64,000 nt of DNA from Proteromonas lacertae (taxonomy: Eukaryota), in contig NGBS01000009.1 in NCBI GenBank assembly GCA_002245135.1, forward strand, positions 62,001 through 126,000. The letters run 5' to 3'. The notes beneath the pieces are model-generated. The model was not told the origin of the DNA, did no database searches, and saw only the letters and a list, made by a program, of their open reading frames with translations. Shown piece after piece: positions 4,891 to 64,000 of the stretch (within the stretch, counting starts at the first letter, position 1; every line of letters begins with the position of its first letter). Made by a program: the position numbers and the translations under genes.

Positions 4891-5941
4891 GAATTGATAG
4901 GAATATTGATAAGAAAATTGAAAATAAAAATAAAAAACAAAAATATTGTTTCATGAAACGATCAAATATTGTTTTGATAATGTTAAAACAATGTTCTACA
5001 ACATTTTCATTAAATAGATATAATATGATAATGACTATAATGTTTAAATAATGTCTTGTTTTTACTCTTTACATTCTATATACACGTATTGTCTTTGATA
5101 ATATAATCAACATATTCTATTCGTTTCTTTCATATAAGTCATATATCACTACTCCAAATAATCCAACCAAAACATTTATCTGTACTATATCTCAATAGTG
5201 TATCCAGATTTTAAAAAAATACATAAACTTAATTCTGTTTTCTAAACAATTAAAATAGTTACATTTGTTTTAAAACTGTTTGAACATACTAAGAGTGTGT
5301 GATACTTCCATTTTTCTACACTTCTTGGTTGATTTAAGTAAAATTGAAAGTAACATAATTCAATAAATAATATAATAGAATTTATAAAGAGATTATTACT
5401 TCTTTTAATTTTTAGTATTTCTGACTGTCAATTACACAAACAGAAATTTCTAGAATTCTTTATCATCATATTCTTCAGATGATGAATAAATATAATATTA
5501 AACTTAAATATATCAATAGTTCACATTATTCTCAACAATTTATGATAATGTTTATGTAATGTAGAAATAAAATGTCATACCACTGTTGTGGACAAAATAG
5601 TGTAATATCTGTTAATTTTAAGGTGAATAGAGTATATCTCAAGCTAGTCACTAGTTTTTAATTCAAATTAGCTTATCTACCGAGATAATTGAGTAGTATT
5701 GGTATGTTTAAATATTTGGTAAGTGGTGATTATAATATTATTGTTTATTTTACACAATAATTTATGATCATCTACATTATGGTGTTTAGAATTGCGTATA
5801 TCATCATAATAGTTGAAATATATAGCTCATATTCCATTACTGTTTAGAAATGAAATGAAATATCATGTGTTTTATAAAAAGTCGTTTCAAACCTTTATTT
5901 TTTTTTATTAGTTGTTTTATAACAGTTAACAAAAATCAAAT

Positions 5942-8900
5942 ATGAAAAGATCCTTTGTATCAACAGTTGTGTGTATGATTATTATTATTATTATTTAATA
6001 GTACTATGCATGGCAAGTTGTTCTTGTGCTTTGACATTCGATTATGAAGATATGCATCCTTTTTATGTGGTAAGAAGTGTAATTACCGAAAATAAACCAA
6101 ACCCTCCAAAAGAAGGATCATACACTGTTTCACCAGACTTACCAGATGGTTTATCACTTGATTCAAAGACAGGATATATTTCCGGAATTCCAACAGTTCA
6201 ATCTTGGACAAGTCATACAATTGTTTATAATGCAGGTCAAGATGATCAAGCATCATGCATATTGATGATAGTCTGTATATTTATCAATTATATATATAAT
6301 TTGACTAGGTATGTCTGCTCCTGTTGTAAATTGTGGTGTATCAAAACTAACAACAGTCTCTCTTATTAATACAGTTATTACTTGTACTTCAACAGGTGAT
6401 GCTTCCGATGATAGTTGGTCAATGACACCCAAAGAAATCCGAGGTGTTACTCAAGATGGTTCCTCTTTGACATTTCGAAATTTCAATCCTCAAACTAACA
6501 TGAAAATTACTATTGAAGCTAGAAATGATGCTGGAACTGGAAGTTTTGACATTGATATTGTTAAAGTAGAGAATCCTGAATTAAAGGATGGTATATTTGT
6601 AACATTTTATGATTTGGAGACAACGAAATGTGATAATTATTATGATGGTATCCCTACATATGAATTTCCATTTGAAGTTCCAATGAATAATTTAGATAAC
6701 TTAACCAATTATGAAAGTTGGATTCAAAAAATGCAAGTATCACCTTGGGGTATAATAACAACATTTAATGGTACAATGGATGGATTTATCAATATTGAAA
6801 CAGCTGGTGATTATACCTTTTATATGCAAACTGGTAATGAAATGAATGCTAGAGTGTTTATTGATGATGTTGAAGTATTATCTGATTGGAGTGAATGTAA
6901 ACCATGGAATGATGATCCAATGAAGAAAACAGTGAAATTAGAAAGTGGTTATAGAAGAGTGATAGTAGATTTTATGGGAGGTGAAGGATTAGATTTCAAA
7001 TTTGTATTAGATTATTCCACTGCAGGAAGTAGTATAAGAAAAACCATTCCATTTAAATATTGTATATATATATATATTGTTTATTATCTGAATAGATTAT
7101 TCGAATTTTAATCCAGTAATGTTTCTATCTGCTGATACTGCCGAAGTTAGTTGGAAATTAGATGCCTTTAGTTTAACTCCAATACATGTATCAAAAGGTA
7201 AAGCTGAAAGTTGTTGGATAAGTAATAATGTTGAATTACCAGAGGGATCTGAAGTAACAGTGAGTGGTATAACAGGTCATCCAGCAATCTATGATGGATT
7301 ATACAGAAGTTAAAATCAAATGTAAAAATCAAGACAGTGAAACAAATGAAATAGCCTTGAAACTTCGTGTTACAGATACTGTAGTTAATGGAGTAAGAGC
7401 TTATTATTACAAACCTTATAATTTCGATACTAGTTTAAATACAAAATATGGTCCAGAAGTTGATGGTATTGATCCATTATATATTCAAAAACAAGATCAA
7501 CCATTCATTCAAGAAATTCAAGAAAAACCTCATCCTGAAGGACTAAGTATAGAAATTCTTGATGATTATGGTGTTTATTGGGAAGGTTATCTTCATCCAT
7601 TACCACAGGATTTAGGATTAAACAATTTCAAAGTTATTGCAGATGGTGGTTATTGGGTTTGTTTTAATCATAAAGAAGTATTAGCTAAGCCAGGAAGAAA
7701 TACAATTGAAGATGAATGATTCTTTGATTTTAATATGACTGATGATGATTATTTGGTTCAGATTTATTTTGTTTCACATAATGGTCATGCATCTTTTCTC
7801 CTATCTAAAAAATTAAATACACAAACTGAAGAACAATACAGTGATTTTCTTCCTTTCAGATATGTTCCAGTAAATGATTATTTCCTAATGACTCAAAGTA
7901 CAGCGACATATCTTAATGGTCAAACAGTAGAGAATCAAGCAATTCCAGTTGAAAGTTTTGGATGTAAAGGAATAAGTGTTGATCCACCATTACCCAATGG
8001 TTTAGTTGCACATTGTTTACCAAGTTCATATATGCCTGTAGTTATTAGCTCATAAAATCAAAGTTACAAGTACACTTGATAAATCTATTTCAACTACTAT
8101 CTATATATCTGTGAAAAGTATAATTCATTTATTTTTATTATCTTAAATAGCTGTTCAATCACCAGCAGATTTTTATGTAATAGATCTTCAAACTGGAAAA
8201 GAATATACTGATTCAATATTCTTAGTTGTAGGTGAATTCTATGATCTTCAATTCCATGTGAAATCTGGTTATGCAATTGAATTTAGAGCTGAGAATATTC
8301 CAGTTGGTTTTACATATGATTGGAAATCATCAACTCTTTCAGGAAGTCCAAGAGAAAAATTAAATACAAAAGTGACGAGTAACTGCAGTTGTTCTTCCTT
8401 CTGATGGTGATAATAAACAATTTGAATTTGGAATAAAAGCTGAAGGTGGATGTGAAAGTGGGAAAAGACATTCCTTCCATTTCAGTAATGATTTTGTTGA
8501 TAATGGTCAATATTTAATGTTAAGAGTAACAGCTTCAAATGGTACAATAGTTTTAAATAAATATGAAAAGAACACAGTTAGTTTACCTCGAACTTACAGT
8601 ATGTGTCTTCCAGTAGATACTTATACAATATATATAAGTGGAATGTTTGATTATGTATTTACTGTTTACAATGATGGTGTAAGAATCTATCGATATACTG
8701 GTGATTTTCCTGTTACTGATTCTCATACAGTTGTACTTAACACAGGTATATATTATTTAATTATATGTAATTGAATAGATCCTGTTGAACCTAATTTTAA
8801 ATATATTACCAATAATGCAACCTATTATCAAGGTAATCAAATCCTATTAATTCCAACAATAGAAACATTTGTTGATTATTTCACTATTACTCCTTCAGCA

Positions 8901-11900
8901 TTACCAAGAGGTATTAGATTCAACAATATAACAGGAAGAATATATGGAACAGCTCGTTTTATTACTAATGCAACAACATATACAATCACAGCTATAAATG
9001 ATAAAGGTCGAAAGAGTGTAGAAATGATAATACATATAATTCCTGATACTCAAGAAGATGATTGTGAAAATGCAGGAAAATTCTTGATTGGATTAACCTT
9101 AGCTGTAGGAAAAGAATATGATAGACCAGCTTATCAATTAATCAATTCAAAAGATGAAGTTGTATTTGAAAGAGTAGATAATACATTTACTGAAAACTCA
9201 ATAAACAGTATAAAGATGTGTATAACAAAAGGATGGTATACATTGAGATTGATTGATATAAGTGGAGGTGGTTGGGGAAATTCCAATATGACAATCTATG
9301 CAGGTAATTCCATAATTGGTAGATATACTGTGTCTTATACTGATAATGGTGAAGTAAATATAACAACTGATTGTATATATTAATTGTTTTATAATTTCTA
9401 TAGTTACATATTTGATGGATACTCGAACACAATGGCAATATAATCGACAATATGTTCCAAATTGGGAATTTAAGAACTTCACTTTAACATGGCCAACATC
9501 ACCAATAACAACATTGGCTCAACCTCCACTTACTATGCCAACATATTATTTGAGATATCCATTTATCATTCCCAAATTATGACAAATATTCAGGTTATTT
9601 CCTTCGAATTAAACATAGATCTGGTGTAATTGTCAGAGTAAATGGAAGAGTAATATTCAGAGATAATTTACCAGTTGGTGATGTCAATGAAAATACTCCA
9701 GGAGATACTGCTTATGAAAGAGCGAGAGAAGAGAATTTCATATTACCAATCGATGATTTAAATGAAACAGCAATAATAACTTATGAAATTCATAAAAGTC
9801 CAACGGATGATAATTTCCCAAATGAAGATAGATTTTTTATATTCCCATTAGATGGAGATAATGATGAAGATTGTATTTTAGTTACACTTTATGGTGGAAG
9901 TGTAAGTGATTCATCTAGTAAAAGTTTTGGTAAATATGAATCATCTTTTGCTCATGCAGCATTTGATTTATCAGTTGAATCATCATGGGATGATTATTAT
10001 GGAGCAGTAGATGGTTATTCCTATGCTGATTATACATTTGGTAGTAATAATCATTTCGCCTTTAATCAATTCACAATGAGAGCTGGTACTAGTGCAACAA
10101 ACACATTATCCAATGAAAGTGTCATTAACAGGTACAACAGATACATCGACAGTGTCGATTGGTTCATTAGATCCAGTAAATTATTTCATAACAAAGAAAT
10201 ATACACCAGGAAGAGCAACCTTCAACGTAGATCCTTATACATTATATAAAAGTGTAAGAATTGATATACCCAAATCAAACCAATATGATTATGTTAATAA
10301 AGGAATGGAAGTGAGAGAAATTGGATATCATTTATGTCGTACAAAGAAGTGTGCAAGAAATTCCATTGAAAATCTTCCAGAAGGAATATCCAATACATTT
10401 TTTAAAACAAATTGTTCAAAGCCTGATTCTGCTGGTGAAAGATATTTTTATTGTTCAAACTTTGCTTTATGGATTGAAGCAAATTCTACTTGTGGAGATC
10501 CACCAAAATTCATTAATTCAGTAACAACAGCATATTTAGATGCTGGAGTTGCTTATGTAGATGAATCAATATATGAAGTAACAGGAAATCCAACATTTTA
10601 TAGTTATTCATGTTCTGATTGTGAATCAGGTAAGTTTATTCCTGGATTGTTCTACAATCCGTTAACTGGTTTAATATCAGGAACTGCTTATAAAGGAGCT
10701 ACTTATTCAATTAAGTTTACTGCTAGAAATAGCTATGGATCTGGTGAAATAACAATGACAGTAGTTGTTCGATCTTCTAATGATATTATCATATATGAAT
10801 ATAAACCAACAGTATCATTTAATCTTTATGCAGAATTAAATGAACAAATATTTTGGGTAGAAAGTAGTTCACCTGTGAGTTATACTGTTGATTTACTTCC
10901 GCTTGGTTTAACAATAGATTCTTCAACTGGTTTTATTAAAGGAAAATCAACAAGACCAGGAAAGACGATAAGTCTATTCACTATTTCCAACACAGCTGGA
11001 AAATCAACAACAAGAACTGTTGAAATTACTATTGCATTACCTAATGAACCAATAATGGTTGAATCTGTAGATAAATTAGATTTAGTCTATATGATGGATT
11101 ATGATAATCAATATCCAATATTATGTTATTCAAATCCCTTAACTTATAGCATTGATAAGAATTTACCAGCCAGTTTAACTTACAATGCAACAACAGGTGC
11201 AATGAAAGGAAAAGTAACCGCTTCAGCTCAATCAGCAGTTAGCTACAAATTCTCTTGTACAGGTAAAAGTCAAACAGTTTCAAAAGATATTTTAGTATCA
11301 GTAATTCAAGGTGATGATATTCCAGTTGTAATTAGTCAAAATGAATCTGTAATCTTAACAACAGGGCAAGAATTATTTAATGAGAGATTCTTTACAGTGA
11401 GTGGATCAAATTTAGTTTATTCAATTACTCCCACATTACCAAGTGGAATAACAATGGATTCTAAAACAGGAACATTTAGTGGTTATGGCAAAGTAGATAC
11501 TCAAAATACAACTTATACAATCAATGTATCTAATGGTAAAAACTCAATTCAGATTAAAATGTTAATAGTAGTAGTAAAAAGTGAAAAACCAGTAATTCCT
11601 GATTCAACAGTAAAGAAAGATATAGAAGTAGCAACAGGAACAATGGTGTCAATACAATTATTTGATGCAGTTGGAGATGGTTTATCAGTATCAATAAATC
11701 CGCTATTACCTGATGGTTTTATAATATCTGCTTCTGGATATTTACAAGGACTTTCAGTGGTTGATGTTGCAAAACAAGATTATGTAATAACAGTAACAGA
11801 TTCAAATGGAAAATCAGCAAGTGTAACAATCAAATTAGAGTTTAAAGCAAAGAAATGTCCAGCTAATGATGGTTTTCCTGAAACTCTAGTAGGTGATCAA

Positions 11901-12176
11901 GCAGTAATAAAATGTGGAGGAGGTCGATCTGGTTTTATAATGAGAAGATGTATTTATGTAGATGGGAATGCAATCTGGGAAAGTCCAATTGATGAATGTT
12001 CAGGAAGTACAACAGGTGCTTTAGTTGGAATAATAATTGGTTGTATAATATTGGGAGGAGTTGTATTCTTAGGAGGTTATTGTATTTACGTCAGAGTAGG
12101 TGGAAGAACAAAACATGTTCGAAAAACAGCTGAACAAATGGTTGATGCTTCAAAAGATGCTGGTGTAAGAATTTAA
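5942..12176 (+). CDS. Large type-I membrane surface protein with putative Ig (He_PIG-like) repeats and PA14-like domains; frame-disrupted as assembled
   Basis: Spliced N-terminus MKRSFVSTVVLLCMASCSCA resembles a signal peptide. Repeated LPxGLxxDxxTGxISG motifs, PA14-like segments (GFINIETAGDYTF; YGVYWEGYL) and a C-terminal TM helix. Five +1 shifts and one in-frame TGA (7717-7719). Confidence 0.8.
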
Positions 12177-14947: not shown

Positions 14948-16370
14948 ATGTCTTATCGAGAATTGAGACGTAATAATTTTTTGAATAATTTATTATAGGT
15001 TTTACTGAAATTATGCGATCTTTGGGTTATCCTCATAAGATCTCAGTATTAAAATTCAAATTTTATTGATAGGTTGACAGTTTTAGAACCCCTAACTTTG
15101 AGCTTGTAGCTGATTGTTTATACTGGTTAACTACTAGGTATATTGTATGGTTGTATTGTTATTTAGATATGATCCACATATAAATATATCTGATGAGTAT
15201 AGTACTGAAGAAGATAGAATAAATTTACTAACTACAATAGCAGAAGTATTTTTTGAAATTCTATTTTCTAGAAAATGGCTAGTTTGGCTAGAATCCGACT
15301 AAATACAAAAAAACTTTATGCGGCAGAGGGTCATGCAGTACGTGAATTACTTAAAATAGCAAATATACTATATAAGTATCAATAATCAAAATTTACTCTA
15401 TTGTAGTGCACATATTAATACAACAGATGATGATACAATTGAAGATGCCTATGTAGATGATGAAAAGAGAATATCAGTAGATACAGCTAAAGATTTATCC
15501 AATGGAATTAGAGAAAGTGGTGTAAAACTATATGATTTATTAGGCGAAGAAAGCCAATTATCAGCAAGTAGAGCAAAAACAATATCTTTCTTAGATACAT
15601 CAGGCATTGGAGGTGATTTAGCAGCTAAGTATAAAGAATTGATTTTTTTTAATAAAAATAGAAAATTAAATGGTTTAATAACATCAGCAGAAGCTAATGA
15701 AAAACAATTAGATGCACAAATAGACGAATTAAAGAGAGATAAGAGTACTTTTGAGAAGAAATTAGAGAAAAAGAACGAAGATTATGAAAGATTAGAGAAA
15801 AAGATCCATGAAACTCGTAATTTCAGACCTGCTTATATGGATGAGTATGAAAGATTAGAAGATGAAATGAGACAGATTTATGCAGAATATTTAAGCAGAT
15901 ACCGTAATTTAGATTATCTAGAAAAACAATTAGACAAATATAATAGACAAGAAGAAGAAAGTGCTAAAGCAGCTCAGAAAGAATTAAAGAAATTACAAGA
16001 CAAAATGAAGAGGGATATAATAAAGGCAACAAAAGAGAATTTAGATGATGTTGATGAAGATGATAGTGAATCAGGCTCAGATTCAAGTGAAAGTGAATCT
16101 GGATCTGATGAAGATGAGAGTGATGGAGAAGTTGCTGGTGGAGGTCGTGGTGGTTATAACAGAATGGGAGGTAATGGAGCAAGAGGTGGTGCTGCAGGTG
16201 GTGGTGGTGGTGATAGAGGTAGACCAGCTGGTCAGAATGGTGGTGGTAGATATAATATAAGAGGTAATATGGCTGGTGGAGGTGATTCTAGTCCATCTGA
16301 TAGTGATTCTGATGATGATGACGATGATGATGATGATAGTGATGTACCATCTAGTGATGAAGATAATTAA
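14948..16370 (+). CDS. CLUAP1: Clusterin-associated protein 1 / IFT38 (IFT-B subunit)
   Basis: Spliced product starts [19 protein letters not shown]...[12 protein letters not shown] and contains [12 protein letters not shown] plus an acidic tail. Six short introns; frame intact. Confidence 0.93.
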
Positions 16371-19233: not shown

Positions 19234-20060
19234 ATGACAGATTCAAAAATCCCTCTTGATGTAATGAGTATGATGGGGTTATAACGTATTATATTAAATA
19301 GAGCCATGCAATTTATGTGGCAAGATAATAACTGATTCTGTTTATGTGACATTTAAAGATAAGATTAGTCACAAAGAATGTTTCAAATGCTCAAAATGTG
19401 GAAAATTATTAGATGGACAAGAATTTCAGGTTGAAAGCGTAAAATTCTGTTATTTAATCTTTTTTATAGGATAAATTATACTGCATTGACGATTACAAGA
19501 AGTATTTCTGTAAACATTGTGCAGTTTGCGGAGAGGCTTTAATAGGAAAGTTCTATCCTTGTGGTGATAAATTCTATCATGATAAATGCTTTGTTTGCAA
19601 GGACTGTGGAAAGAGTGTAGTTAGTGGATATAAAGAATCTCCACCAGATGCTGATCATGATGTTGGTATCTTCTGCCCAGATCACTATTACGAACATTTT
19701 GGTGAAATCTGTACTGCATGTGGTAAAAGATGTCATGCACAAGTTGAGATATTGAGGGATTATAAGTACCATCCAGAATGCTTTTCTTGCTGTGTTTGTA
19801 AGAAACATCTTGAAAATGGTGAATTTAAAGTCCAATTTAGTGAAGATAATCAACCTCCAAAGATATATTGTACAGAACACTATGGAGAATTAGTAGCTCC
19901 AAAATGTTGTGGATGTAAAAAGCCTTTGGAAGGAAGTTATGTTACTGCAAATGGAAGTACTTATCATCACGAATGCTTCAAATGTGAAAAATGTGGTAAT
20001 GTCATTGAAAAATCCTATGCTATAGTTGATGGTAAAGTTTGTTGTCCAAATTGTAAGTAG
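19234..20060 (+). CDS. Four-LIM-domain protein (paxillin-like LIM array), paralog 1
   Basis: Four CxxC...HxxCFxCxxC...C LIM units; two introns. Confidence 0.9.
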
Positions 20061-21202: not shown

Positions 21203-22108
21203 ATGGGTAATTGTTCTGGTAAAAATGCAACATGTATATATAATTGCTTTTTGATAGTTATATTCACTGTTGAGACTAAAATGAGATGAATTGCCTATTC
21301 TTTAGAATTATATATTTCTATATAATTATATTTTAATAGCTGTATCAGGATGTTCTGTTTGTGGAAAAGAAATAACTGATACAACAGTCATTTCTTATAG
21401 AGACAAGAAATGCCATAAAGCATGCTTTAAATGTTCAAAATGTCACAAGGCCTTAGATTTAAACGGATTTAAAATCAATAATGTATTGTTTAAAAGAAAC
21501 TAATTTTTAATTAGGATAAACTATATTGTGTAGATTGCCATAATAAAGAGAATGGCATGAAATGTGCTGTATGCAAACAACCATTAACAGGTAAATACTA
21601 TCCTTGTGGAGATAAACTCTATCATGAAAAGTGTTTTAAATGCAAAGATTGTGGTAAAAGTGTAGTAGATGGATACAAGGAATCACCTCCAGAAGCTACT
21701 AGTAATATTGGTGTATTCTGCCCCAAACACTATTATGAACATTTTGGTGAAACCTGTACTGCTTGTGGTAAAAAAATTCAAGAAAAAACAACAGCATTAA
21801 AAGATTTTAAATACCATCCTGAATGTTTTGCTTGTTGTATTTGTAAGAAGCAATTGTCTAATGGTCATTATCATACAAAGTATGATGATGAGAAAAAACC
21901 TCCTAAAATATACTGTGATAAACATTATGATGAATTATTTGCACAAAAATGTTGTAAATGTGATAAACCTTTAGATGTGAAATATGTTACAGCTAATGGT
22001 AAAAATTATCATCATAAATGTTTCAAATGCGAGTTTTGTGGTAAAGTGATTGATAGTTCATATACCACAGTTGATAATAAAATATGTTGTCCAAAATGTA
22101 AAAAGTAA
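21203..22108 (+). CDS. Four-LIM-domain protein, paralog 2, with N-terminal MGNC
   Basis: Tandem paralog of 19234-20060, sharing YPCGDK, GYKESPP and HYYEHFGE and both intron positions. Confidence 0.9.
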
Positions 22109-24918: not shown

Positions 24919-25783
24919 TTATTCTGCACATTTGTATATTTTTGAATTATCATAAGTTATTACTTTTTCATATTCACTCTTCTTCTCCAATATACTCTCT
25001 ATATAAATAAAAATAAATTAATAGTAATATATATATATATATATATATACCAGCATTAATTCTCATTGCTTTGGCTATTGTTGTTACTGGAATTGGAGTT
25101 TGAAACCATGAACCAAATTTCTCATTTCCTCTTGCTTTATCTCCTCTACCTAACAATCCAGGTTGATATATTTCAAGAGAATCAAAATTCAATGTTTTAA
25201 GATTCTCTTCAATCATTCCTTTGGTTTTCATATATTGAAGCCAGCTATTTGGATTAGCTCCCACTGATGATATTAAACTAGTATGATTTATTCCATTATC
25301 CTTTGCGAATTTTGAACATTTTGTTATAAATCCATATTCGATTTTATGAAATTGAGACTATTTAAACATAGAACTTATATTGTAATTATACAGCACCACC
25401 TGCATCAGATCTAGTTGTACCAAAACATGAAAAGAAATAATCATGATCTTTGAAATAATCGGCATGATTGTCAATTTCATCAACTGTACTTATCTATTCA
25501 TATTATTATGTTGTATATATTACATACAAGCTGAACTAATCTTCCACTTTTTTCGTTCTCTTCGACTAAACTCTGATTCTTACCCTCACCATCATACTTT
25601 CGTCTATACAATATTCACCATTATATTAATTATATACCTTCCAACTGTAGTAATTTTAGACCATTTAGGACTGTTTAGCAACTCTAATACCAACTCTGAA
25701 CCAATTGCACCAGTGCCTATCAAATGAAATTAGTAACAGATACTTCCTATAATAATAGCTTTGAAAAGTGAAGTTTCTGACAT
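24919..25783 (-). CDS. HTATIP2/TIP30-like NAD(P)-binding oxidoreductase
   Basis: IIGSTGAIG, FSCFGTTRSDAG, SSVGANPNS and IYQPGLL; five introns. Confidence 0.88.
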
Positions 25784-25910
25784 ATATAGAATGAAGAAGA
25801 GTGTTTTTTTTTTGTTTTTTTTGTATAGATTAACGAATCTATTTTTAGAACAACAAAAAAACAAAAATAATGGTGATACTCATTAAACTAATAAATACTT
25901 AATTAACTAT

Positions 25911-26941
25911 TCATAAATTCGACAGGTACAAGCTAAAACTATCATCGTTATTCTTGAGAACAAAAAAATCAGAGTGACTATTTTGGTTATAAATGTTTTA
26001 TATGATTATAATAATAACATACCATCTATTTTCATATAAATATAACAATTTAATATATACTTCTTACATCTAGAATAAAATCAATCAAACTTTAATACTC
26101 TCTAAAAATAGTGTAAATATATGAATAGAAAATACAATCTAAAAAATATGGTTTTGCATTATTATATACATTCTATATAAAGGGTAATAATAATTATTAA
26201 TACGGTCTAATCAATTTAATAAATTATATAATACATACATACTATAAATTAAGTTATATATATATACTCTCTATTATTAAAAGAATATATTAATTTATCT
26301 AAATAAATATATGTTATATACGGTATTAAACAACTATAAATTGATAAAAAATATATATATATAAATAGTTATACATTTCAACTCTATAATATTTATATTA
26401 ACAATATTTATTATACGGTCTATAAATCATATTACAATTTTTTATATTATACATTCTATCAATAATAGATGATAAAAATACTCTTTTGGTCTAACAGATT
26501 AACATAATAATTATTATACTCAAATCCTAATATTCTATTATATATTATTTATTTATATAATTATACTGACTATACATTATAGAATAAGTATTTATACTTG
26601 CTATTACAATAAAACAATTAAAAAATATTACTATATACCATCTACAACATTATATATATTATTATACTTTCTAATAACATAATATTATATTAAAATTAAC
26701 ATACGGACTAAAGAAATGTGAAAATAAGTAAACTTACCATTTTATATATTGAATGGATAACAAATATTCTGCTGCTGATTTATATGATTCAATTGCATCA
26801 TCTCCAATATATTTTGTATCTAATTAACCAGATTAGTTGGTTTAGTGATTATATGATACTAAAATTGAATAAAGAACATTGATCTTGCTCAGCAAATCCA
26901 TCATCCATATCTTGCGAGGAACCATCTGGTATTTCGTCCAT
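25911..26941 (-). CDS. Micro-exon gene encoding a 108-aa acidic protein with a CPKC-x25-CKKC zinc ribbon (22 exons, 19 of them 3-15 nt)
   Basis: Regular tag|exon|gtat pattern. Spliced product: MDEIPDGSSQDMDDGFAEQDQCSLFNFNTKYIGDDAIESYKSAAEYLLSIQYIKCPKCNQILGFEPKEIPVEICLIPDIPILECKKCHSDFFVLKNNDDSFSLYLSNL*. Confidence 0.85.
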
Positions 26942-27088: not shown

Positions 27089-28528
27089 CTACTTCTTTTT
27101 CATTTCTAATTCAAGCAAAATAAACGACATATCAGGCAATGCATTACCTTCTCTATCATATGCTTCCAACAACTGCAACAATACTTCAGAACATTCTCTA
27201 GTAGTCTCCGATTTAGCAACTACTTCACGTATAGTTTCATTCGTTAAAGTTCTCCACACACCAGAACTACAAATCACAATGAATTTATCATGATCTGCTA
27301 ATACCTGCTGACTCAGATCGGGAGTACCAATAACACCTATCGTATGTGCAATATTATCTCCAATAGAACGACTTACATACAATCCAGGAATCTTTAAATC
27401 ACTTTTTATATATAACCTTGGTATACTGTTAATACTTTTATCTGGATATTCTGGAGCTTCAATTACACCACCATATGTGATTATTCGTGCCTTTTCTTCA
27501 ATATTTTCTGGTAGATGATCTTGTGTAAGTTGGAATATATTTCTATCCAAGACATTTCCTGTAACTACAATTGCTCGATTATCACCTAAATGAACTACAT
27601 ATAATAATTTCCTTCTGAATAAACATAATGTAAAACAAACACCAGTAAAATCTAAATTAATTTGACAGTTGTCATATATTTTTGATTCGATGTTATTAAA
27701 TACGTTTTTCATACACTGAGGGAGATTGTAAGGCCATGATTCTTCTGATAATAATGTCATTAATATTGTCTTGGCTGTAAACTATAAAAAATAAAATAAA
27801 AATGAATTTATTAATATAAATAAGGAATAACATATTTAATTATATGTATATATATATATATATACTTCTGCTAATTCATGTCCATATTCTCCATGACCTG
27901 ATATTATACCAAATATCATCGTTTGAGTTTCTTCGTCAGAATATAACATAATATGATCCATTGGCTGTCTGTTTGGATCGTAAGGGTATATACACTTCAA
28001 TGAAGATGATATAAACGATTCTATTGGTGCATATAGTTTTAGATCTGATTCTAATGGAGGTGGAATCTTCGGAAGACTTGGAGCTGATTCATCCCTTGCT
28101 ATTGGTTTCATTGGCAATTCAATAAAGTGATTATTATTATCTTTTTGCCTATCTAGTTCTTGAGCTTCTTCTAATTCATCATATTCTTCTGGAATTTCTC
28201 TTGATGAGTATTGAGTGACAGATTCTTCAGGAAGTTCCATAGATGAGTATTGCGTGACTGAATCTGTTGTTGAATCAGCTGTTGAATCTGCATTTGACTC
28301 AGAATCTGCAGTTGTTCCTGTCATAACAGAATCACCTCTTTCTCTTCCAGCACCAAATGCTCCATCTTTATATCCTGCTATTGAAATTCTTCTTCGACTG
28401 TTTTGCCTTGATAAACTCCCTAAACTCCCTAAGTTCTTTAAACTTTCCAATCGCATAATGCTATGTCTACTATTCGATTTACCGATAGCATCTAATCTTA
28501 TGAAACTTCCTTGTTGTCTGTTTAACAT
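27089..28528 (-). CDS. PP2C/PPM-family phosphatase-like protein with degenerate metal ligands
   Basis: HLGDNRA, LTQDHLP, PGLYVSRSIGD. SGHG and SSGVW replace DGHG and SDGVW. Confidence 0.85.
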
Positions 28529-55767: not shown

Positions 55768-58700
55768 TTAATGAAGACTATCATATTCTTCTATTTTCTT
55801 ATTTGCAACTTCCAACCATTTTCTAGCTTTTGGAATCCAATCTTTACCTAAATTACTCAAAGCCTTTGAACTATTTCTTCTAATATCCACCATCTTCTTA
55901 TGGACATTCTCTCCTTTAATTTCGATTGCTTTTTCTTTTCTTGTCTTTCTTTTCTGTAATTCATCTCTTTTACCTAATGCAAATTTATCATATTCTTCTC
56001 CATGCTTTACTTTATAACTACTAACATCACTTTCTATCTCTTCTAAGAATTGTTCTAATTCTTTCTTACTGATCTTCTGTTGACTATATTCAATTTGTTT
56101 CTGTCTTTTCAATTCATTCATTTCTTCAACATATCTACTTATATCAGATTCACATTTATCCAATTCATCTAATAATATCTTTTCTATTTGTTCATTATCT
56201 TCAACCATCAATCTCTTTTGATTCTCTTCAAACACTGCCAATTCTTTATCACATCCATTTATCAAATTCTCTTCTTCTTCTTCAATCTCAGTTCTTTCTT
56301 CCATTATATCTAATATCTTTCTATGTAATTTCATTCCTTCCATTCTTAAATCTCTACCATAGAATTTATTATGAGCTTCAGTAATTCTTGTCAAACATAT
56401 GTTAATATCTTCACATAAACTTCTCTGACAATCTTTGATTTCTTCTCTTCTATTCATTCTCGCACTTGTTATCCATTTAATAGCCATTGCCTTACTTGCA
56501 CTACTTAAATACAATCTGTCATGTGGAATTGATAACTCACCTGATCTTTCTCTTAATTTAATATTGTAAGCTCTTCTTGCACGTTTTTCTTTACGTTTTT
56601 CATCTCTTCTCTTTGAATCTTCAATGCATTTCTGTTTATAATCTTCACTTTCTTGAATAGCTTCATCACTTGGTTTTTCTATTTGATATTTAGTTCTCAT
56701 TATTGTTAACCATTTCTTTAATAATAAATAATCAGTTGTTCCTTCCTTGATTTCTATTGGATCATAGACATTTTCAAATTCATCTTCATCACTTTCTTCA
56801 TCACTATACTCTTCATTATGAATTCCTCTTTCTAACTGAGCTTCATTTCTACAATATTTACATCTTGTTACATAATTAGCATTCTTTCTGAAGAAGAATT
56901 GCCAATCAAATTGTGAGATTATATCATCTGCACTTCTTGTTTCTCTCTCATATTTATTAATCAAATCCTCTAATCCATGAGTCAATATTCTTCCTTCAGC
57001 ATCACATAAATCAACTATCAATTCATCACTATTAAACTTTCTATTACAAACACTACATATTTCTTCTTTATTATTCTCCACAATTTCATCAACATAACTC
57101 TTATAGATTCTTCTTCTTCTCACTTTTTCTAACCAAAATTTAGCTATATCTCTTGTCTTTGGTGTTATATTCTTTCTTTCCCACATTCCTGTTCTGAACT
57201 TTTCTTCTGCTTCATCATCATCACTTACTTCATTTTCTTCACCTAATTTCTCTTTTCTTACCCGTAACTTATTATAAATTGATTTTATATATTCTCTTGT
57301 ACTCTTATCATCATATAATGGTGCTTCTAATGTTCGTGGTGTTAATAATTTATATAAATGATCCAATATCCATGTCTTATTGCTGGTTAAGAATCTTAAT
57401 CTAAATCTGTCTGAATTTAAGGCATTTAGTTCTAATCTTTCTTTCTCTACATCTAATGATCTTCTTATTCCTAAAGTTGCTTTTTCACCAGCATCATCAT
57501 CAACATATCCATCATACTCTTTTCTACTCCATATTCTTAACAATTGACATAACACAATTAAGAAGTATTTTGATATTGTCACAAATAAAAACATGAAGAA
57601 TAATAATGGGAAGAACATTGGATCTGAGAGTGGACTGAAATACACATTAGTACAGATGAAATAACCAACAATTATTGAGAATATTCCACTAACATACAAT
57701 GTATTGATGAAGTAATATTGAGATGAAAAACACAATTTATCAATAATTCTCAAACTTTCTGTCAAACTATCATCCAATTTTGTAATATACATTGACCATT
57801 GACATTCTCTCATTCTGAATCTTTGATTATCAAATCTTAAGAAATCAGTCATTCTATAACCATACAACAATTCCATTGCACTTAATAAGAATATCTCCAT
57901 AATAAACACTGCTACTAATAATATGAAGAAATAGATAACGTAATAATAAACCCAACTTAACTTAATATCAAATTCACTGTAAATTGGAATCTGTAAATGG
58001 AATACTCTTATTAATAATAAAGCGAATGGAATTAAGTAATAAACATGTAAATCAACAGTAAACATAGCGAAATTCTCTATTATTGGTTCTACACTTTCTT
58101 TATCTAATTCAACTAATCTTTTTAATCTTCTCCATTCTGCTTCTTCTTCAATTCTTTCCCTTTGAGACATTTTGTGATGATTTTTACACTTTCTTCTTAT
58201 TGCAAATACCCATTTAGGCCATCTTTTAACACAGAATAATATTAATGGAGTTATATACATTCTATTGATTATTGTACATCCCATTATGATGAAGTAACAG
58301 AAAATAAAATCTAATAAATCATAGGCTGATAAAGCTACAAACATTGGAACAAATGTAACCATAATATCTAATGGAATTGCTAATATAAAATCTCTCAAAT
58401 AAATCTTATAAAATGTAGTGATTATTAACTGACATATTTTCATAATACCAATGAATAAGTAAACTCTTTCTTTAAACCAATGTGAAAATGAGAATTCTAT
58501 TGCAGTAATACAATATATTAAACATAACATCGTATAGAAGAAGAAGTAACTTCTCTTCCACCAATGAGGTCTCCAGTACTTTGAATATTCTCTTTTCTTA
58601 TCTTCATCACTATCATAAAATGTATTATCAATATTTGGCATAAATATATATTCTTCTTTCTTCTTATCATCAAATGATTCAGTTGGTATAAACACCTTCA

Positions 58701-61700
58701 ATCCTTGGAATATAATATAAACACCAATTATTAAGAAACAAGTTCCCATTCTTCCATTTTTCACTGCAGCTATTGTTTCTTCAGACATTACTGATGTATC
58801 ACTCCAATCTCCTTGTTTATCTTCAAAACTAATTGGATTTGGCTCTTCTACTGGATGATCGGAGGAGAATACTTGGAACCATATCCATATCATACCACAA
58901 CCCCATAATAATGGAGTTAAACCAGTGATTATACCGATTAATGAGTTAGGTAAAACTGCTGCGAATAATTTACAACAATTACAACATGGAGGATTTCTTA
59001 ATAACGTAATGATTCTATGGAATAACCAGAATATAAATCCTATTACAATTAAACCTAAAAATATCATTCCTACGAAGAATAAATAGATTGGCCAATTGAA
59101 TTCGAATAAATTGAATAACTCATACCAATTCAATGGGTAATATTGTATATCTAATGTATAATTTGTACTATTACACTTCAACACTGGTGGATCATAATTA
59201 CTGAATCTTTCTTCTTCTTCTGGTTTATGTGTGATTGTACAGAAATCATAAAATTCAACAAATGAATCTAACAAGTATTTCTCATTCTTTTCATCTTGTT
59301 TATAAGCAATAAACAATTTAATATTTCGTGGAACCATTGTATCTTCTGAAGCATGTTCTGACACTTTAACTGGTATTAAATCATCAGTATCTAATAAGTT
59401 ATGAACAGCGCTTGTTCTACCCCATTCACTACCATCTTCTTTACCATAATAATCTCTTGAATTCATTGGATACTTGGTTAAATAGAATAATATTGATTCT
59501 TCTTCTAATTCAAACCATCTCTTTAAGTATCTAACTCTAAATATTTCTTCTTCATAATTACATTTCAAATGAATTCCATCACATTTATCAGCATGTGGAT
59601 CTTCTTTTGTTTCATCTTTCTTTGGGAATTGCTTTATAACAGTTGTATTATCATAATCTACTATATTACAATCAGGATTATCTTCAGTCATTTTACCAAT
59701 GAATATATTATTATCATATTCCTCACATTGAGAGAAATAAGGTAAATAAGGGAATGCTATATATCTTCTTTTTACGAAATAATCCCAAAATGTTGAATAA
59801 TATTCCAAATCTTCAGCATAATCACCTCTTGAATAAATTGATTGTGAATTATCACTATTATTGAATGGTAATATTGTTCTATTGTATTTCTCTAATTCTC
59901 TTTCTCTATAACCTGGATCACCAACGTCATAATTAACTATATGATTAATTAAGGCTGTTCTTTCTAACACTTTGAAACTATCTCCTGCTTTTCCATATTT
60001 GTAAATGTTTACTGGTAAGTTGTAAGGTAAACCATAATGTGGTTGAATTAATTCTCTATTTATCACAGCTAAGAATTGTGTTGCTTTTTCTGTAACATTC
60101 ATTATATCTTCATCTGGATCATAATTACTTCTGTGTGGGTAAAATATTGATAAATCTGATGTATTATGTAACTTTGCAAATGCTAAGTAATAACCACCAT
60201 GAATTAATTCCATTGTAAAAATAACTTTGATTCTGGTTTGGGCTTGAATATTGACTTGAACCATTGTATGTTTATCATCAAAATAAGGTTCAATTGCTAC
60301 ATTCTGTGAGAAGTACGAAGGCAATGGATGTGGAATACATTTACAACATTCTGAACATAGGAAACCTGATTCTGTTTGTGTTTTATTATTCGGCCAATCA
60401 CAGGATGGATGTTCATATGAATTTTGATAATTACATTCATACATTGGCGGACATGGTGTACAATTCATATACACTCCAATTCTATAATGTTGACCATATG
60501 TAAAATTCTGTTGTAACATTGATAAATTCATTGTTAATGTTGCTATACCATAACCATCTAATTCAAAGAAAGGTAATCCACTTTCTTGTCCACTGAATAT
60601 CTTTAAATGCTCATCATTTGGTTGTAAGTATTCATTATCTTCATACACTGGAACTAATCTTTTTACTACTGTAACTTTATCTTTTGGAACAAAACAGTCT
60701 TGATAATTTGTTGCAAAACCATTGGTTGTTGTTCCATTTGGACATTTCAAGGATCTTTCACATTTACATATATCTAATCGATATGGTACATACTTTGTAT
60801 TATCAGTTTCAGTACTACTTTCATCAATATCTTCAATAAATTTGACATAATTTGGTAAATCTTCATCTAAATTGTCTATTAAATCTAATGCCCAGTAATA
60901 ATCATATATGTTTAAATCATATTCTATCCTATCACTTTCTATTTCTGCTTCATTACATTCTTCAAAGTAATCTAATCTTGTTGTATCTCTACAATATTTC
61001 TCTCTTCTTTCATGTTCATATTCTTTCTTTACAGCTTTACTAAATTCATGGAAATTTGGGAAATGTATCTTTTGTTTGTATGTAAATTGTAATGTAGTTC
61101 CATTAGTATAATCTTTTCTTTCTTCTAATCCATAAGTAACATTTGGTTCAAATACACATTGCTGTTTACTTCGTGGTCTTTCAGTACATTTCCATAACCT
61201 ATAAACATCTAATATTCTATCAATCTGAGCATTGCAATCACAATCTCCTCTTAATATTACATTATAAATATGTCTCCAATAACTATCTCTACCACATGTT
61301 AATTCAGCTAATTTCTGTACACTCACTTTACCTACAGAACCATCTTGTAATTGATAGCTTTGATATATATTAGACAATGAATCATTCAATGCAGCAATAC
61401 ATCTTTCATCATGATATACCAAATCACCTACCTCTTTCATTATTCTTTTACTTTCAAATGTTTCATTCATCCATACTAAAGCATTGAATGGATCAGCTTC
61501 ATCTCTTGTTAAATGTCTTCTTAAAGAATCCATTGCCATTGTTCCTTCATATGGATCACCTGTTCCTGTAGGACAATAATAACCAATTGGACATGGGAAA
61601 TCATATTTCAAATCTTCTGCAGTTGCTGCTGGACAGTAATAACCTACTGGACATATTGATTTATATTGACTGAATGGGTTTAATAAGTTATAATCTGGTG

Positions 61701-64000
61701 TTGTACCATCATCACATGCATAACCTGGTTTACATGATACTGCTACTTGATTATCAGATCCTGTACTTTCATAACAAACATAACCTTTGGGACATAATAC
61801 TGAATGTGTTATTGTATCAAAATTACAAATATAATCAGCTTCACAATCACCTGGTATATATTCTGTGGATGTATCATTCATGAAATAACCATGTTGGCAT
61901 TCAGTGTAAAATGAATAATCTCTAAATGTTGGTAAATCTATAAATAAAGAACCTCTACCAAAGAAACCATAATATTTATCTATTGTGCCATGACCTTGAT
62001 GTGTTTTACCTGTTAATTTATAAGATGAACCATAATATTGTCTATATAATTGATACAAAGGAGAACCATCAGCTTGTGGATTGTAATAACATTTTCCTAT
62101 TGGTAATCCTTCTTCATCATAATCTACTGATCTTATATTTGGTTTACCTGTAGTATCATTCACTGAAAGTAAACCCCATTTGTATAACTTTCCAGCTTGT
62201 TCACAATCATATTTATTAGTAATTGCTGGATATTCTGACCATGCTGTTGGTAAATCTTTCTTACTACAAGGATCAACAATTCCTTCTACTGGACAAACAA
62301 TACCTGGAGGACATCTATTACATTCACTCTTATCTCTCAATTCATAATTCTTACCCCAAGTACCTTGTGGACAACCAATACAAACTACACGATTCAATTT
62401 ACCATCAGTGAACTTATAATCATTATTACGATAAGTTCCTGGCTTACACACATTTGATTTAGACATTCCATCATTCTCACATTCTGTACCTGGTGGACAT
62501 CTGTAACATTCTACTGTCTGTATTGTTGGAGCATAAAAACCAGGAGCACAAACTGCACTTTCATATAAACCTGGTAAACTTGAATAATGACCTTTTGGAG
62601 TTGGAATTGGAACTGCTGTACCTTCTGGACAATAGAAACCAACTGGACATAATCCCATACCTTTAGCTGTTGTACTACCTAATTCACAGTAAAAACCTTC
62701 ATGACATGGTTGTGCATATAAGAAATCACCTTTCTTAATTTCATCATAACCAACTCCTCCTGTACAATATGATCCTGGTCTACAAGGATAAGGTCTTAAT
62801 GTTGTATCATTTCTAAATGGATCTGATGTTAATGTACCATTTGGACAATAATAGCCTGCTGGACATCTTAGATTTGGCGCTTCTAATCTTGGTTTACTAC
62901 ACACCATACCTGGTGCACAAATGGCTGGAATTAATCTACCCATTCCTGGACAATAATAACCTTCTGGACAATCATTACAAAGTGTTTGTTGATTCTGACC
63001 ATTGTAAGTACCTGGAGGACATAATTCTGGTTCTATTAAACCTCTTTTTGGACATTGTGTACCTACTGGACATGGAATTCTTTCACCAAATGGACAGTAA
63101 AAACCTTCTGGACATAGATTATCTCCAAATTCACTTGGTCTTCCCATACCTTCAGGACAATACATTGATTCTTGACATGGTTGTGGTGTTGTGAAGTTTA
63201 ATAATACTACATCATAGAATGCAGTACCTGGATAACAATAAGTACCAGCTGGACATGGAACAGGTCTTCTTAATGAGAAATCATATGATGAATAATCAAA
63301 TACATAATCTGAAACTAATAAATCATTTTCATCTGGTAATCTATAACATGAATCATCTAAACAATATCTTCCTCTTATTGGTATAAAATCAGTATCTGGA
63401 TCTAATGGTAAATAGTGTAATTCTTGCCAATATCTCTGTGGCATATCTGAATAAATAAAACCTATATCAAATGATGAATTATCCCAACACATATGATTTC
63501 TTGATCCTAATACCATATCTCTTGGTTTTGAATCTTTATTTGGATGAACTGTACTTCTTCTTTCTACATGACTGAATGATGGACTAAACTGAGTTGAATA
63601 TACTGGTGAACCACAAGTTGTTGCTGTTGTTGCTGTACCTTCTAAACAATAATGACCTTCTGGACATGGTTGATCTGCTACAGCTACACCTGTTACTTCA
63701 CACACATAACCTGCTGGACAAATACGTGGAACTGGTAAACCATATTCTGGACAATGATATCCTATTGGACATCTTAAACAATCAGCTTGACCATAAAGTG
63801 GTTGATAAGTACCTGGTGGACATAATGTGAAATTTGTATTACCTAAACCATTACAATAAGTACCTCTTGGACAGATTAATATTTCACTCAATTCATTATT
63901 TGGACAATAATAACCTTCTGGACATAATCTCTTAAATTCTAATGTATTTCGGTTAGTTGTATAATCCAAACCATTATTGGATATTTCTACATAAACATTA
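55768..64000 (-). CDS. Giant GCC2/GCC3 (ephrin-receptor-like) cysteine-repeat multi-pass membrane protein, 5'-partial
   Basis: ORF of more than 2733 aa with many CPxGxYC repeats, multiple TM helices and a coiled-coil tail. The frame stays open to the window edge (VYVEISNNGLDY, IPT/TIG-like). Confidence 0.85.
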   Translation of the reverse strand, partial: NVYVEISNNGLDYTTNRNTLEFKRLCPEGYYCPNNELSEILICPRGTYCNGLGNTNFTLCPPGTYQPLYGQADCLRCPIGYHCPEYGLPVPRICPAGYVCEVTGVAVADQPCPEGHYCLEGTATTATTCGSPVYSTQFSPSFSHVERRSTVHPNKDSKPRDMVLGSRNHMCWDNSSFDIGFIYSDMPQRYWQELHYLPLDPDTDFIPIRGRYCLDDSCYRLPDENDLLVSDYVFDYSSYDFSLRRPVPCPAGTYCYPGTAFYDVVLLNFTTPQPCQESMYCPEGMGRPSEFGDNLCPEGFYCPFGERIPCPVGTQCPKRGLIEPELCPPGTYNGQNQQTLCNDCPEGYYCPGMGRLIPAICAPGMVCSKPRLEAPNLRCPAGYYCPNGTLTSDPFRNDTTLRPYPCRPGSYCTGGVGYDEIKKGDFLYAQPCHEGFYCELGSTTAKGMGLCPVGFYCPEGTAVPIPTPKGHYSSLPGLYESAVCAPGFYAPTIQTVECYRCPPGTECENDGMSKSNVCKPGTYRNNDYKFTDGKLNRVVCIGCPQGTWGKNYELRDKSECNRCPPGIVCPVEGIVDPCSKKDLPTAWSEYPAITNKYDCEQAGKLYKWGLLSVNDTTGKPNIRSVDYDEEGLPIGKCYYNPQADGSPLYQLYRQYYGSSYKLTGKTHQGHGTIDKYYGFFGRGSLFIDLPTFRDYSFYTECQHGYFMNDTSTEYIPGDCEADYICNFDTITHSVLCPKGYVCYESTGSDNQVAVSCKPGYACDDGTTPDYNLLNPFSQYKSICPVGYYCPAATAEDLKYDFPCPIGYYCPTGTGDPYEGTMAMDSLRRHLTRDEADPFNALVWMNETFESKRIMKEVGDLVYHDERCIAALNDSLSNIYQSYQLQDGSVGKVSVQKLAELTCGRDSYWRHIYNVILRGDCDCNAQIDRILDVYRLWKCTERPRSKQQCVFEPNVTYGLEERKDYTNGTTLQFTYKQKIHFPNFHEFSKAVKKEYEHERREKYCRDTTRLDYFEECNEAEIESDRIEYDLNIYDYYWALDLIDNLDEDLPNYVKFIEDIDESSTETDNTKYVPYRLDICKCERSLKCPNGTTTNGFATNYQDCFVPKDKVTVVKRLVPVYEDNEYLQPNDEHLKIFSGQESGLPFFELDGYGIATLTMNLSMLQQNFTYGQHYRIGVYMNCTPCPPMYECNYQNSYEHPSCDWPNNKTQTESGFLCSECCKCIPHPLPSYFSQNVAIEPYFDDKHTMVQVNIQAQTRIKVIFTMELIHGGYYLAFAKLHNTSDLSIFYPHRSNYDPDEDIMNVTEKATQFLAVINRELIQPHYGLPYNLPVNIYKYGKAGDSFKVLERTALINHIVNYDVGDPGYRERELEKYNRTILPFNNSDNSQSIYSRGDYAEDLEYYSTFWDYFVKRRYIAFPYLPYFSQCEEYDNNIFIGKMTEDNPDCNIVDYDNTTVIKQFPKKDETKEDPHADKCDGIHLKCNYEEEIFRVRYLKRWFELEEESILFYLTKYPMNSRDYYGKEDGSEWGRTSAVHNLLDTDDLIPVKVSEHASEDTMVPRNIKLFIAYKQDEKNEKYLLDSFVEFYDFCTITHKPEEEERFSNYDPPVLKCNSTNYTLDIQYYPLNWYELFNLFEFNWPIYLFFVGMIFLGLIVIGFIFWLFHRIITLLRNPPCCNCCKLFAAVLPNSLIGIITGLTPLLWGCGMIWIWFQVFSSDHPVEEPNPISFEDKQGDWSDTSVMSEETIAAVKNGRMGTCFLIIGVYIIFQGLKVFIPTESFDDKKKEEYIFMPNIDNTFYDSDEDKKREYSKYWRPHWWKRSYFFFYTMLCLIYCITAIEFSFSHWFKERVYLFIGIMKICQLIITTFYKIYLRDFILAIPLDIMVTFVPMFVALSAYDLLDFIFCYFIIMGCTIINRMYITPLILFCVKRWPKWVFAIRRKCKNHHKMSQRERIEEEAEWRRLKRLVELDKESVEPIIENFAMFTVDLHVYYLIPFALLLIRVFHLQIPIYSEFDIKLSWVYYYVIYFFILLVAVFIMEIFLLSAMELLYGYRMTDFLRFDNQRFRMRECQWSMYITKLDDSLTESLRIIDKLCFSSQYYFINTLYVSGIFSIIVGYFICTNVYFSPLSDPMFFPLLFFMFLFVTISKYFLIVLCQLLRIWSRKEYDGYVDDDAGEKATLGIRRSLDVEKERLELNALNSDRFRLRFLTSNKTWILDHLYKLLTPRTLEAPLYDDKSTREYIKSIYNKLRVRKEKLGEENEVSDDDEAEEKFRTGMWERKNITPKTRDIAKFWLEKVRRRRIYKSYVDEIVENNKEEICSVCNRKFNSDELIVDLCDAEGRILTHGLEDLINKYERETRSADDIISQFDWQFFFRKNANYVTRCKYCRNEAQLERGIHNEEYSDEESDEDEFENVYDPIEIKEGTTDYLLLKKWLTIMRTKYQIEKPSDEAIQESEDYKQKCIEDSKRRDEKRKEKRARRAYNIKLRERSGELSIPHDRLYLSSASKAMAIKWITSARMNRREEIKDCQRSLCEDINICLTRITEAHNKFYGRDLRMEGMKLHRKILDIMEERTEIEEEEENLINGCDKELAVFEENQKRLMVEDNEQIEKILLDELDKCESDISRYVEEMNELKRQKQIEYSQQKISKKELEQFLEEIESDVSSYKVKHGEEYDKFALGKRDELQKRKTRKEKAIEIKGENVHKKMVDIRRNSSKALSNLGKDWIPKARKWLEVANKKIEEYDSLH

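Follow-up and report, generated by a model that had tools for sequence, protein, structure and literature searches.

A predicted gene in a stramenopile-like protist with 19 consecutive micro-exons, 14 of them 3 nucleotides long

In the 64-kb stretch of DNA that we analysed (the window), we found a predicted minus-strand gene at 25911–26941 that has 22 exons, 21 introns and a 327-nt coding sequence (CDS) for a 108-residue acidic protein with two CxxC pairs. Its middle is a 760-nt micro-exon array (25978–26737) in which 19 exons alternate with 20 phase-2 introns of 26–51 nt. We consider it probable that these 20 ordinary short introns are removed one after another and that the 19 micro-exons are constitutively kept, which would yield a 108-residue, predicted zinc-binding product. 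That the gene is real, actively maintained and built from this exon chain is very likely when the first three explanations weighed below are summed. The original prediction for this locus, a real and extremely fragmented gene, is supported by the match of its introns to those of the window, by the gene model, by the reading frame, by codon-position bias and by the paired CxxC motifs.

All exons are read from the minus strand. Exon 1 (26860–26941; 82 nt) starts with ATG and encodes an acidic N terminus without a hydrophobic signal-like stretch. It is separated by intron 1 (26820–26859; 40 nt, phase 1, posterior 1.0 in the gene model) from exon 2 (26738–26819; 82 nt), the last two bases of which are the first two of the first cysteine codon. 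Micro-exon 1 (26705–26707) completes this codon, Cys 55, and is the sole exon whose skipping yields a stop; micro-exon 2 (26668–26670) lies in the first knuckle; micro-exon 3 (26639–26641) begins Cys 58 and has a weak frame-shifting alternative donor at 26631; and micro-exon 4 (26598–26600) completes Cys 58. These four are 3 nt long, as are micro-exons 5 (26567–26569), 8 (26453–26455), 9 (26417–26419), 12 (26268–26270), 13 (26239–26241, with a frame-shifting alternative donor at 26234), 14 (26204–26206), 15 (26170–26172), 16 (26136–26138), 17 (26099–26101) and 19 (26023–26025), the last of which begins Cys 87. The longer ones are micro-exon 6 (26520–26534; 15 nt, with a weak frame-shifting alternative acceptor at 26527), micro-exon 7 (26482–26490; 9 nt), micro-exon 10 (26375–26383; 9 nt), micro-exon 11 (26322–26333; 12 nt) and micro-exon 18 (26061–26069; 9 nt), which carries Cys 84 and, with an internal alternative donor and acceptor, is the least certain exon. 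The last exon (25911–25977; 67 nt) ends in TGA, with stops at 25907, 25903 or 25899 in other parses of the model.

The micro-exons therefore comprise 14 exons of 3 nt, three of 9, one of 12 and one of 15, which give 96 nt when joined; in one run five 3-nt exons stand back to back, and in another six. All 19 are multiples of three and all 20 array introns are in phase 2, so that each 3-nt exon supplies the third base of one codon followed by bases one and two of the codon after it. They fall within the definition of a microexon as an internal exon of 1–15 nt with canonical spliceosomal introns on either side. With 21 introns in 327 coding bases, the intron density is 64 per kb, whereas about 3 per kb are predicted for the rest of the window. 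All 22 exon coordinates of the original prediction were right, as cutting the window at them gives GT..AG at every boundary; its 20 introns of 26–51 nt around the micro-exons were likewise recovered (21 in the gene when the 40-nt intron 1 is included), and its 327-nt CDS translates into 108 residues. It had overlooked five alternative splice sites, two inside 26061–26069 and three other frame-shifting ones.

The array introns are the organism's normal introns. For comparison, we used a codon-plus-splice-site model trained on the rest of the window with the locus excluded, which gave 120 predicted introns (22 of the unfiltered 120 longer than 60 nt); a filter of at most 60 nt and at most 25% G+C left a clean training set of 85, all of them model predictions and not transcript-verified. 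Predicted introns in the window are mostly 25–45 nt long and run from GTAT to TAG without a strong branch-point motif. The median intron length at the locus is 32 nt, compared with 33 nt for the 85 window introns (p = 0.79). All 21 introns of the gene are GT..AG, with the 42 splice dinucleotides intact; the donor is GTAT in 20 of 21, compared with 75 of 85 in the window (donor score 7.1 bits in both), and the acceptor is TAG in 21 of 21, compared with 81 of 85. The array had been described as repeated units of TAG, micro-exon and GTAT, and this held at every acceptor and at all donors except that of the first array intron, which starts GTAAG. Acceptors at the locus scored below the training set, which was scored on its own model (5.5 versus 7.2 bits). 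The splice sites lack an exon-side consensus, with G at exon position −1 in 13 of 85 and at +1 in 12 of 85, and the signals thus lie in the intron.

Run without a minimum exon size, this gene model recovered the parse of the original prediction, with a posterior of at least 0.85 for 20 of the 21 introns under the default prior. The array parse beat a single long intron by 71 bits, whereas 300 shuffled regions reached a maximum of 8.3 bits and 5 introns. Across the joined 96 nt, the frame that the flanking exons impose is free of stops and each of the other frames has three, and translation places CxxC at residues 55 and 84 of the predicted product with a spacer of 25 residues, in agreement with the stop-free, two-knuckle reading first proposed. 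G+C by codon position was 0.39/0.33/0.06 in the joined exons, compared with 0.41/0.35/0.16 in window genes, and the codon score of the joined exons was reached by none of 20,000 base shuffles. When exon order was shuffled 200,000 times, 1.7% of the products were stop-free and 0.04% were both stop-free and endowed with two CxxC. Single-exon skips leave the frame open in 18 of 19 cases; 14 retain both CxxC pairs and 5 of 19 remove one. For 19 of the 21 introns, retention of that intron alone would truncate or shift the product.

The array also stands out from its surroundings by composition and spacing. Micro-exons have a G+C content of 26%, compared with 9% for intron interiors (p = 2e-5). The 760 nt contain 14 instances of TAG-N3-GTA, compared with a mean of 0.62 and a maximum of 5 in 5000 dinucleotide shuffles, and no TAG/GTA pairs at spacers of 1, 4, 5, 6, 8, 11, 13 or 14 nt. 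The original prediction had suggested scanning the genome for arrays of the AG-N3-GTA type; we ran such a scan over the 64-kb window and found consecutive units at this locus alone, with all seven matches to three consecutive 3-nt units lying in the array and none in 100 shuffles. Outside the locus, the smallest of 56 other internal exons between consensus short introns was 47 nt, and a motif scan gave three short candidates, all of which by eye sit inside open coding frames; the array is thus exceptional in its own window. On the minus strand at 55768–63974, we observed a very long, nearly intron-free open frame of Cys/Pro/Gly-rich repeats (predicted exons of about 6.0 and 2.1 kb). YAG-N3-GTA matches at 62387–63644 are codons of this frame and hence not micro-exons.

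Repeat structure was also sought in the array. Tandem Repeats Finder detected nothing beyond short two-copy matches. Mean pairwise intron similarity was 0.23 in the array and 0.26 among unrelated window introns, and 90% of 300 random sets of 20 reached the locus value; the array introns nevertheless resembled each other a little more than their shuffled versions did (2 of 300). Identical triplets formed four pairs, compared with 2.9 expected (P = 0.31). Together, the two-copy-only repeats, the dissimilar introns and the triplets without excess identity rule out a satellite or a recent tandem duplication. A structured RNA was also considered and rejected, the best Rfam match having an E value of 0.95.

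The predicted product has a pI of 4.1 and no signal-like or membrane stretch; its highest 9-residue hydropathy within the first 30 residues is −0.01, by a hydropathy test rather than a signal-peptide predictor. Small and acidic, it is probably an intracellular protein of the C4 zinc-ribbon type that is not secreted and has other proteins as binding partners. Zinc binding and the ribbon itself are predicted from the CxxC motif and not from a family match or a fold. The product resembles C4 zinc ribbons (ZPR1, eIF5/eIF2-beta, the RPB9/TFS N-terminal ribbon and Zn_ribbon_4-like domains) in having two CxxC pairs around a loop, but it scored 4.7–10.6 bits on locally built profiles on which their own members score 39–154 or more. 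The ZPR1 zinc finger (PF03367) shares its spacing, with a spacer of 25 here and of 25–26 in 14 of 14 archaeal sequences. Membership of this family was rejected at 5.3 bits on a local profile built from 14 archaeal matches rather than the Pfam model (members at least 91; 31 of 500 cysteine-fixed shuffles as high). We also rejected eIF5/eIF2-beta (PF01873; local profile from 30 archaeal matches), with 4.9 bits compared with at least 154 for members and 8 of 500 controls as high, and the RPB9/TFS N-terminal ribbon (PF02150; local profile from 26 of 30 loci), with 4.7 bits and 25 of 500 controls as high. Zn_ribbon_4 (PF13717) gave 10.6 bits (members at least 39; 2 of 500 controls as high), and because its 19 training matches all lie below the Pfam cut-off, this score reflects only a generic likeness to small ribbons.

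Searches with other parts of the gene gave no homologue. Exon 2 had only a sub-threshold match to MIT in Pfam (14 bits, cut-off 30) and no match in the PDB. The open frame containing exon 1 had no match among longer proteins and no usable Atlas match; its one match among 1.84 billion representatives (P0135), an HYR-like repeat protein, was rejected because the score sums five weak repeat matches, including residues outside exon 1. A pattern describing the micro-exons of the first knuckle had no matches in viral contigs, and its 22 matches in metagenome contigs were simple repeats or unrelated DNA, with no homologue among them. This pattern would miss distant relatives, as it demands the same intron positions and GTA/TAG sites.

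In the mechanism that we favour, each intron would be recognised across itself (intron definition), its GT pairing with the next AG. The introns would be removed in series, as two spliceosomes cannot occupy both sides of a 3-nt exon, and with each step the micro-exon would be absorbed into a longer one. An intron of 61–104 nt would be required to skip one micro-exon, and only 4 of the 120 predicted introns are in that range; the narrow intron length (about 25–45 nt) suggests that GT pairs with the next AG, with inclusion as the default and skipping rare. Twenty-one serial steps would make output steeply dependent on splicing efficiency: by arithmetic rather than measurement, 0.95 per step gives 34% overall.

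One rival account also takes the gene as real but treats it as a device for diversity like that of Schistosoma micro-exon genes (MEGs), in which frequent in-frame skipping would vary the length and residues of the loop between fixed zinc knuckles. Such a design would fit the restriction of all 19 exons to multiples of three in phase 2, although the 85 other window introns use all phases (35/28/22), and the tolerance of the frame to 18 of the 19 single skips, 14 of them with both CxxC pairs preserved. We nevertheless think it unlikely, since the introns that skipping demands lie outside the main length class, the knuckles are themselves split over micro-exons so that five single skips lose a CxxC, the product has no signal peptide by hydropathy, and the 64-kb window holds no paralogous array. 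A different possibility concerns only the 3′ end: the array would be spliced as described up to micro-exon 17, and use of another site in the 9-nt exon would give a different C terminus that lacks the second CxxC. Both the internal donor and the internal acceptor of 26061–26069 leave 2 nt and shift the frame. The alternative donor was the choice of the first whole-window model, which took a 2-nt exon at 26068–26069 and fused the gene into the next one, and its parse trailed the full one by just 6 bits; a posterior of 0.14–0.30 was assigned to the alternative acceptor at 26063. In the cleaner model, the acceptor of the 9-nt exon had a posterior of 0.67 and the TGA at 25911 one of 0.14–0.35, and a low intron prior brought several 3′ introns down to 0.4–0.75. 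The gene model is blind to cysteine pairs, and the multiple-of-three rule together with the second CxxC would favour the 9-nt reading. An altered 3′ end would violate the rule kept by the other 18 micro-exons, would use an AAG acceptor where 81 of 85 introns end in TAG and would leave one CxxC unpaired, and we regard it as very unlikely. A copy of a Blastocystis-type 3′-end motif lies 55 nt past the stop; as the motif occurs in only 1 of 28 predicted genes, it was set aside as support.

We attach similarly little weight to the idea that the 760 nt are removed as a unit, whether as one long intron or in steps that discard the triplets, or are a relic no longer in use. The product would then be the 76-residue protein, without CxxC, that results from joining exon 2 directly to the last exon, a join that is open and in frame, as originally noted. 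This reading is the one that lost by 71 bits in the gene model. Against it stand also the coding signature of the triplets, which encode two CxxC, and the intact state of all 42 splice dinucleotides; a ratchet point would require a TAG directly followed by GTA, and the array has none. Least probable of all, to the point of being nearly negligible, is that the array is a chance pattern of AT-rich, low-complexity DNA or a degenerate satellite. Three TAG-N3-GTAT units in a row do arise from simple repeats in large collections, as we saw when a generic three-exon pattern, used purely as a chance control, matched more than 121 stretches in viral contigs (5 for a narrower version). Against this stand the shuffle tests on sites, units, codons and gene-model score, the short two-copy limit of the repeat matches and introns that are no more similar to one another than random window introns.

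We compared the constitutively spliced array that we favour with known systems. Like Schistosoma MEGs as described in one report (10.1101/2023.06.21.545858), it has a run of 10–20 tiny exons, mostly multiples of three, that forms the middle of a small protein and is overlooked by gene finders. In that account, however, most MEG exons measure 15 nt (within a range stated as 3 or 6 to 81), whereas 14 of the 19 here are 3 nt; MEG introns are 0.1–5 kb, compared with 26–51 nt; MEG products carry a signal peptide, are secreted and are alternatively spliced, whereas the predicted product has no signal-like stretch and has a paired-CxxC core; and MEGs are confined to flatworms of the Schistosomatidae, whereas the array is in a stramenopile-like protist. 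As intron size, signal peptide and lineage all differ, the array is not a MEG.

Isolated ultra-short exons offer a closer parallel in mechanism. These include a 1-nt exon of Arabidopsis APC11, for which serial intron removal was proposed (PMC4674806), plant microexons of 1–15 nt, which are often constitutive and domain-encoding and for which serial removal is supported by read data (PMC8831610), and the 3-nt exons reported for hth in Drosophila and MAP4K5 in humans (PMC7392893, PMC8632122). As here, they are too short for spliceosomes on both sides, and intron definition with serial removal has been proposed; in the texts covered they are, however, singles or an adjacent pair (5 + 12 nt), whereas here 19 in a row make up most of a predicted domain. 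Recursive splicing similarly removes a stretch in many ordered steps at close 3′ and 5′ splice sites, but ratchet points, according to 10.1101/006163, are zero-length AG/GT sites in very long introns that add nothing to the mRNA. In the array, the sites are 3–15 nt apart and every intron is tiny; of 23 TAG in the 760 nt, none is directly followed by GTA and 14 have GTA after 3 nt. Since the spacers are coding, this is not recursive splicing. The array would work like serially spliced microexons and resembles a MEG in layout, and its extreme was not found in print: the full-text literature that we covered, mostly freely readable papers and main texts only, contained no array of consecutive 3-nt exons but solely isolated exons of 1–3 nt or two adjacent ones, in agreement with the original statement that no array dominated by such exons was known.

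The single phase throughout the array would follow most simply if an intron together with whole codons had been copied locally again and again; alternatively, introns may have been inserted into a gene that already existed, while skips that shift the frame were selected against. Near-identical introns, sought in the array as a mark of recent copying, were not found, and with dissimilar introns and no excess of identical triplets any copying must be old. A broader proposal, which is possible but which we hold to be rather doubtful, is that a folded domain with all four predicted metal ligands is encoded at about one codon per exon, that the array grew long ago from intron-plus-codon modules that have since become unrecognisable by divergence, that the 21 serial steps would act as a steep gate tying output to spliceosome efficiency and that such genes may form an unrecognised eukaryotic class that standard annotation misses.

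If the favoured reading is true, 21 introns in 327 coding bases would be a new extreme of gene fragmentation, and the spliceosome would be able to cope with many 3-nt exons in succession, provided that the introns are short and define themselves. The limit of minimal exon size and the order of intron removal become directly testable in a 1-kb minigene, and the array could serve to test in nature whether introns multiply by local module duplication or by insertion, and why they keep to a single phase. The whole zinc-ribbon core would be lost to gene finders and to read aligners, and similar genes may therefore hide in other short-intron protist genomes.

The window is eukaryotic, with about 27% G+C and long open frames under the standard code. 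Its calreticulin has relatives that are 98% and 79% identical, and named stramenopile relatives at 59–63%; in a 121-row, midpoint-rooted tree of this one gene, it shares a clade of six tips with Blastocystis sp. (support 0.92). Cluap1 is a cilium gene, and we observed a Cluap1 gene on the plus strand at 15360–16370 (PF10234, 117 bits). Blastocystis has lost nearly all cilium genes, according to PMC10690189. The presence of Cluap1, combined with the grouping of calreticulin with cilium-gene-poor Blastocystis, suggests that the host is likely a flagellated relative of the latter.

Upstream of the predicted gene lies the last exon of a PP2C phosphatase gene (27089–27781, minus strand; PF00481, 92 bits), whose stop is about 150 nt before the ATG. 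The downstream neighbour (24974–25783, minus strand) starts about 130 nt past the stop; the exon tested against Pfam had only an unrelated sub-threshold match, and by eye we take the product to be a candidate NAD(P)-binding protein of the HTATIP2 type. Elsewhere on the plus strand, tandem paralogous Cys/His-rich exons at 19470–20060 and 21515–22108 resemble LIM-domain repeats by eye (candidate), and 5572–12176 encodes a large predicted surface protein, likewise a candidate judged by eye, in which Ig-like modules recur and the C terminus carries a membrane anchor.
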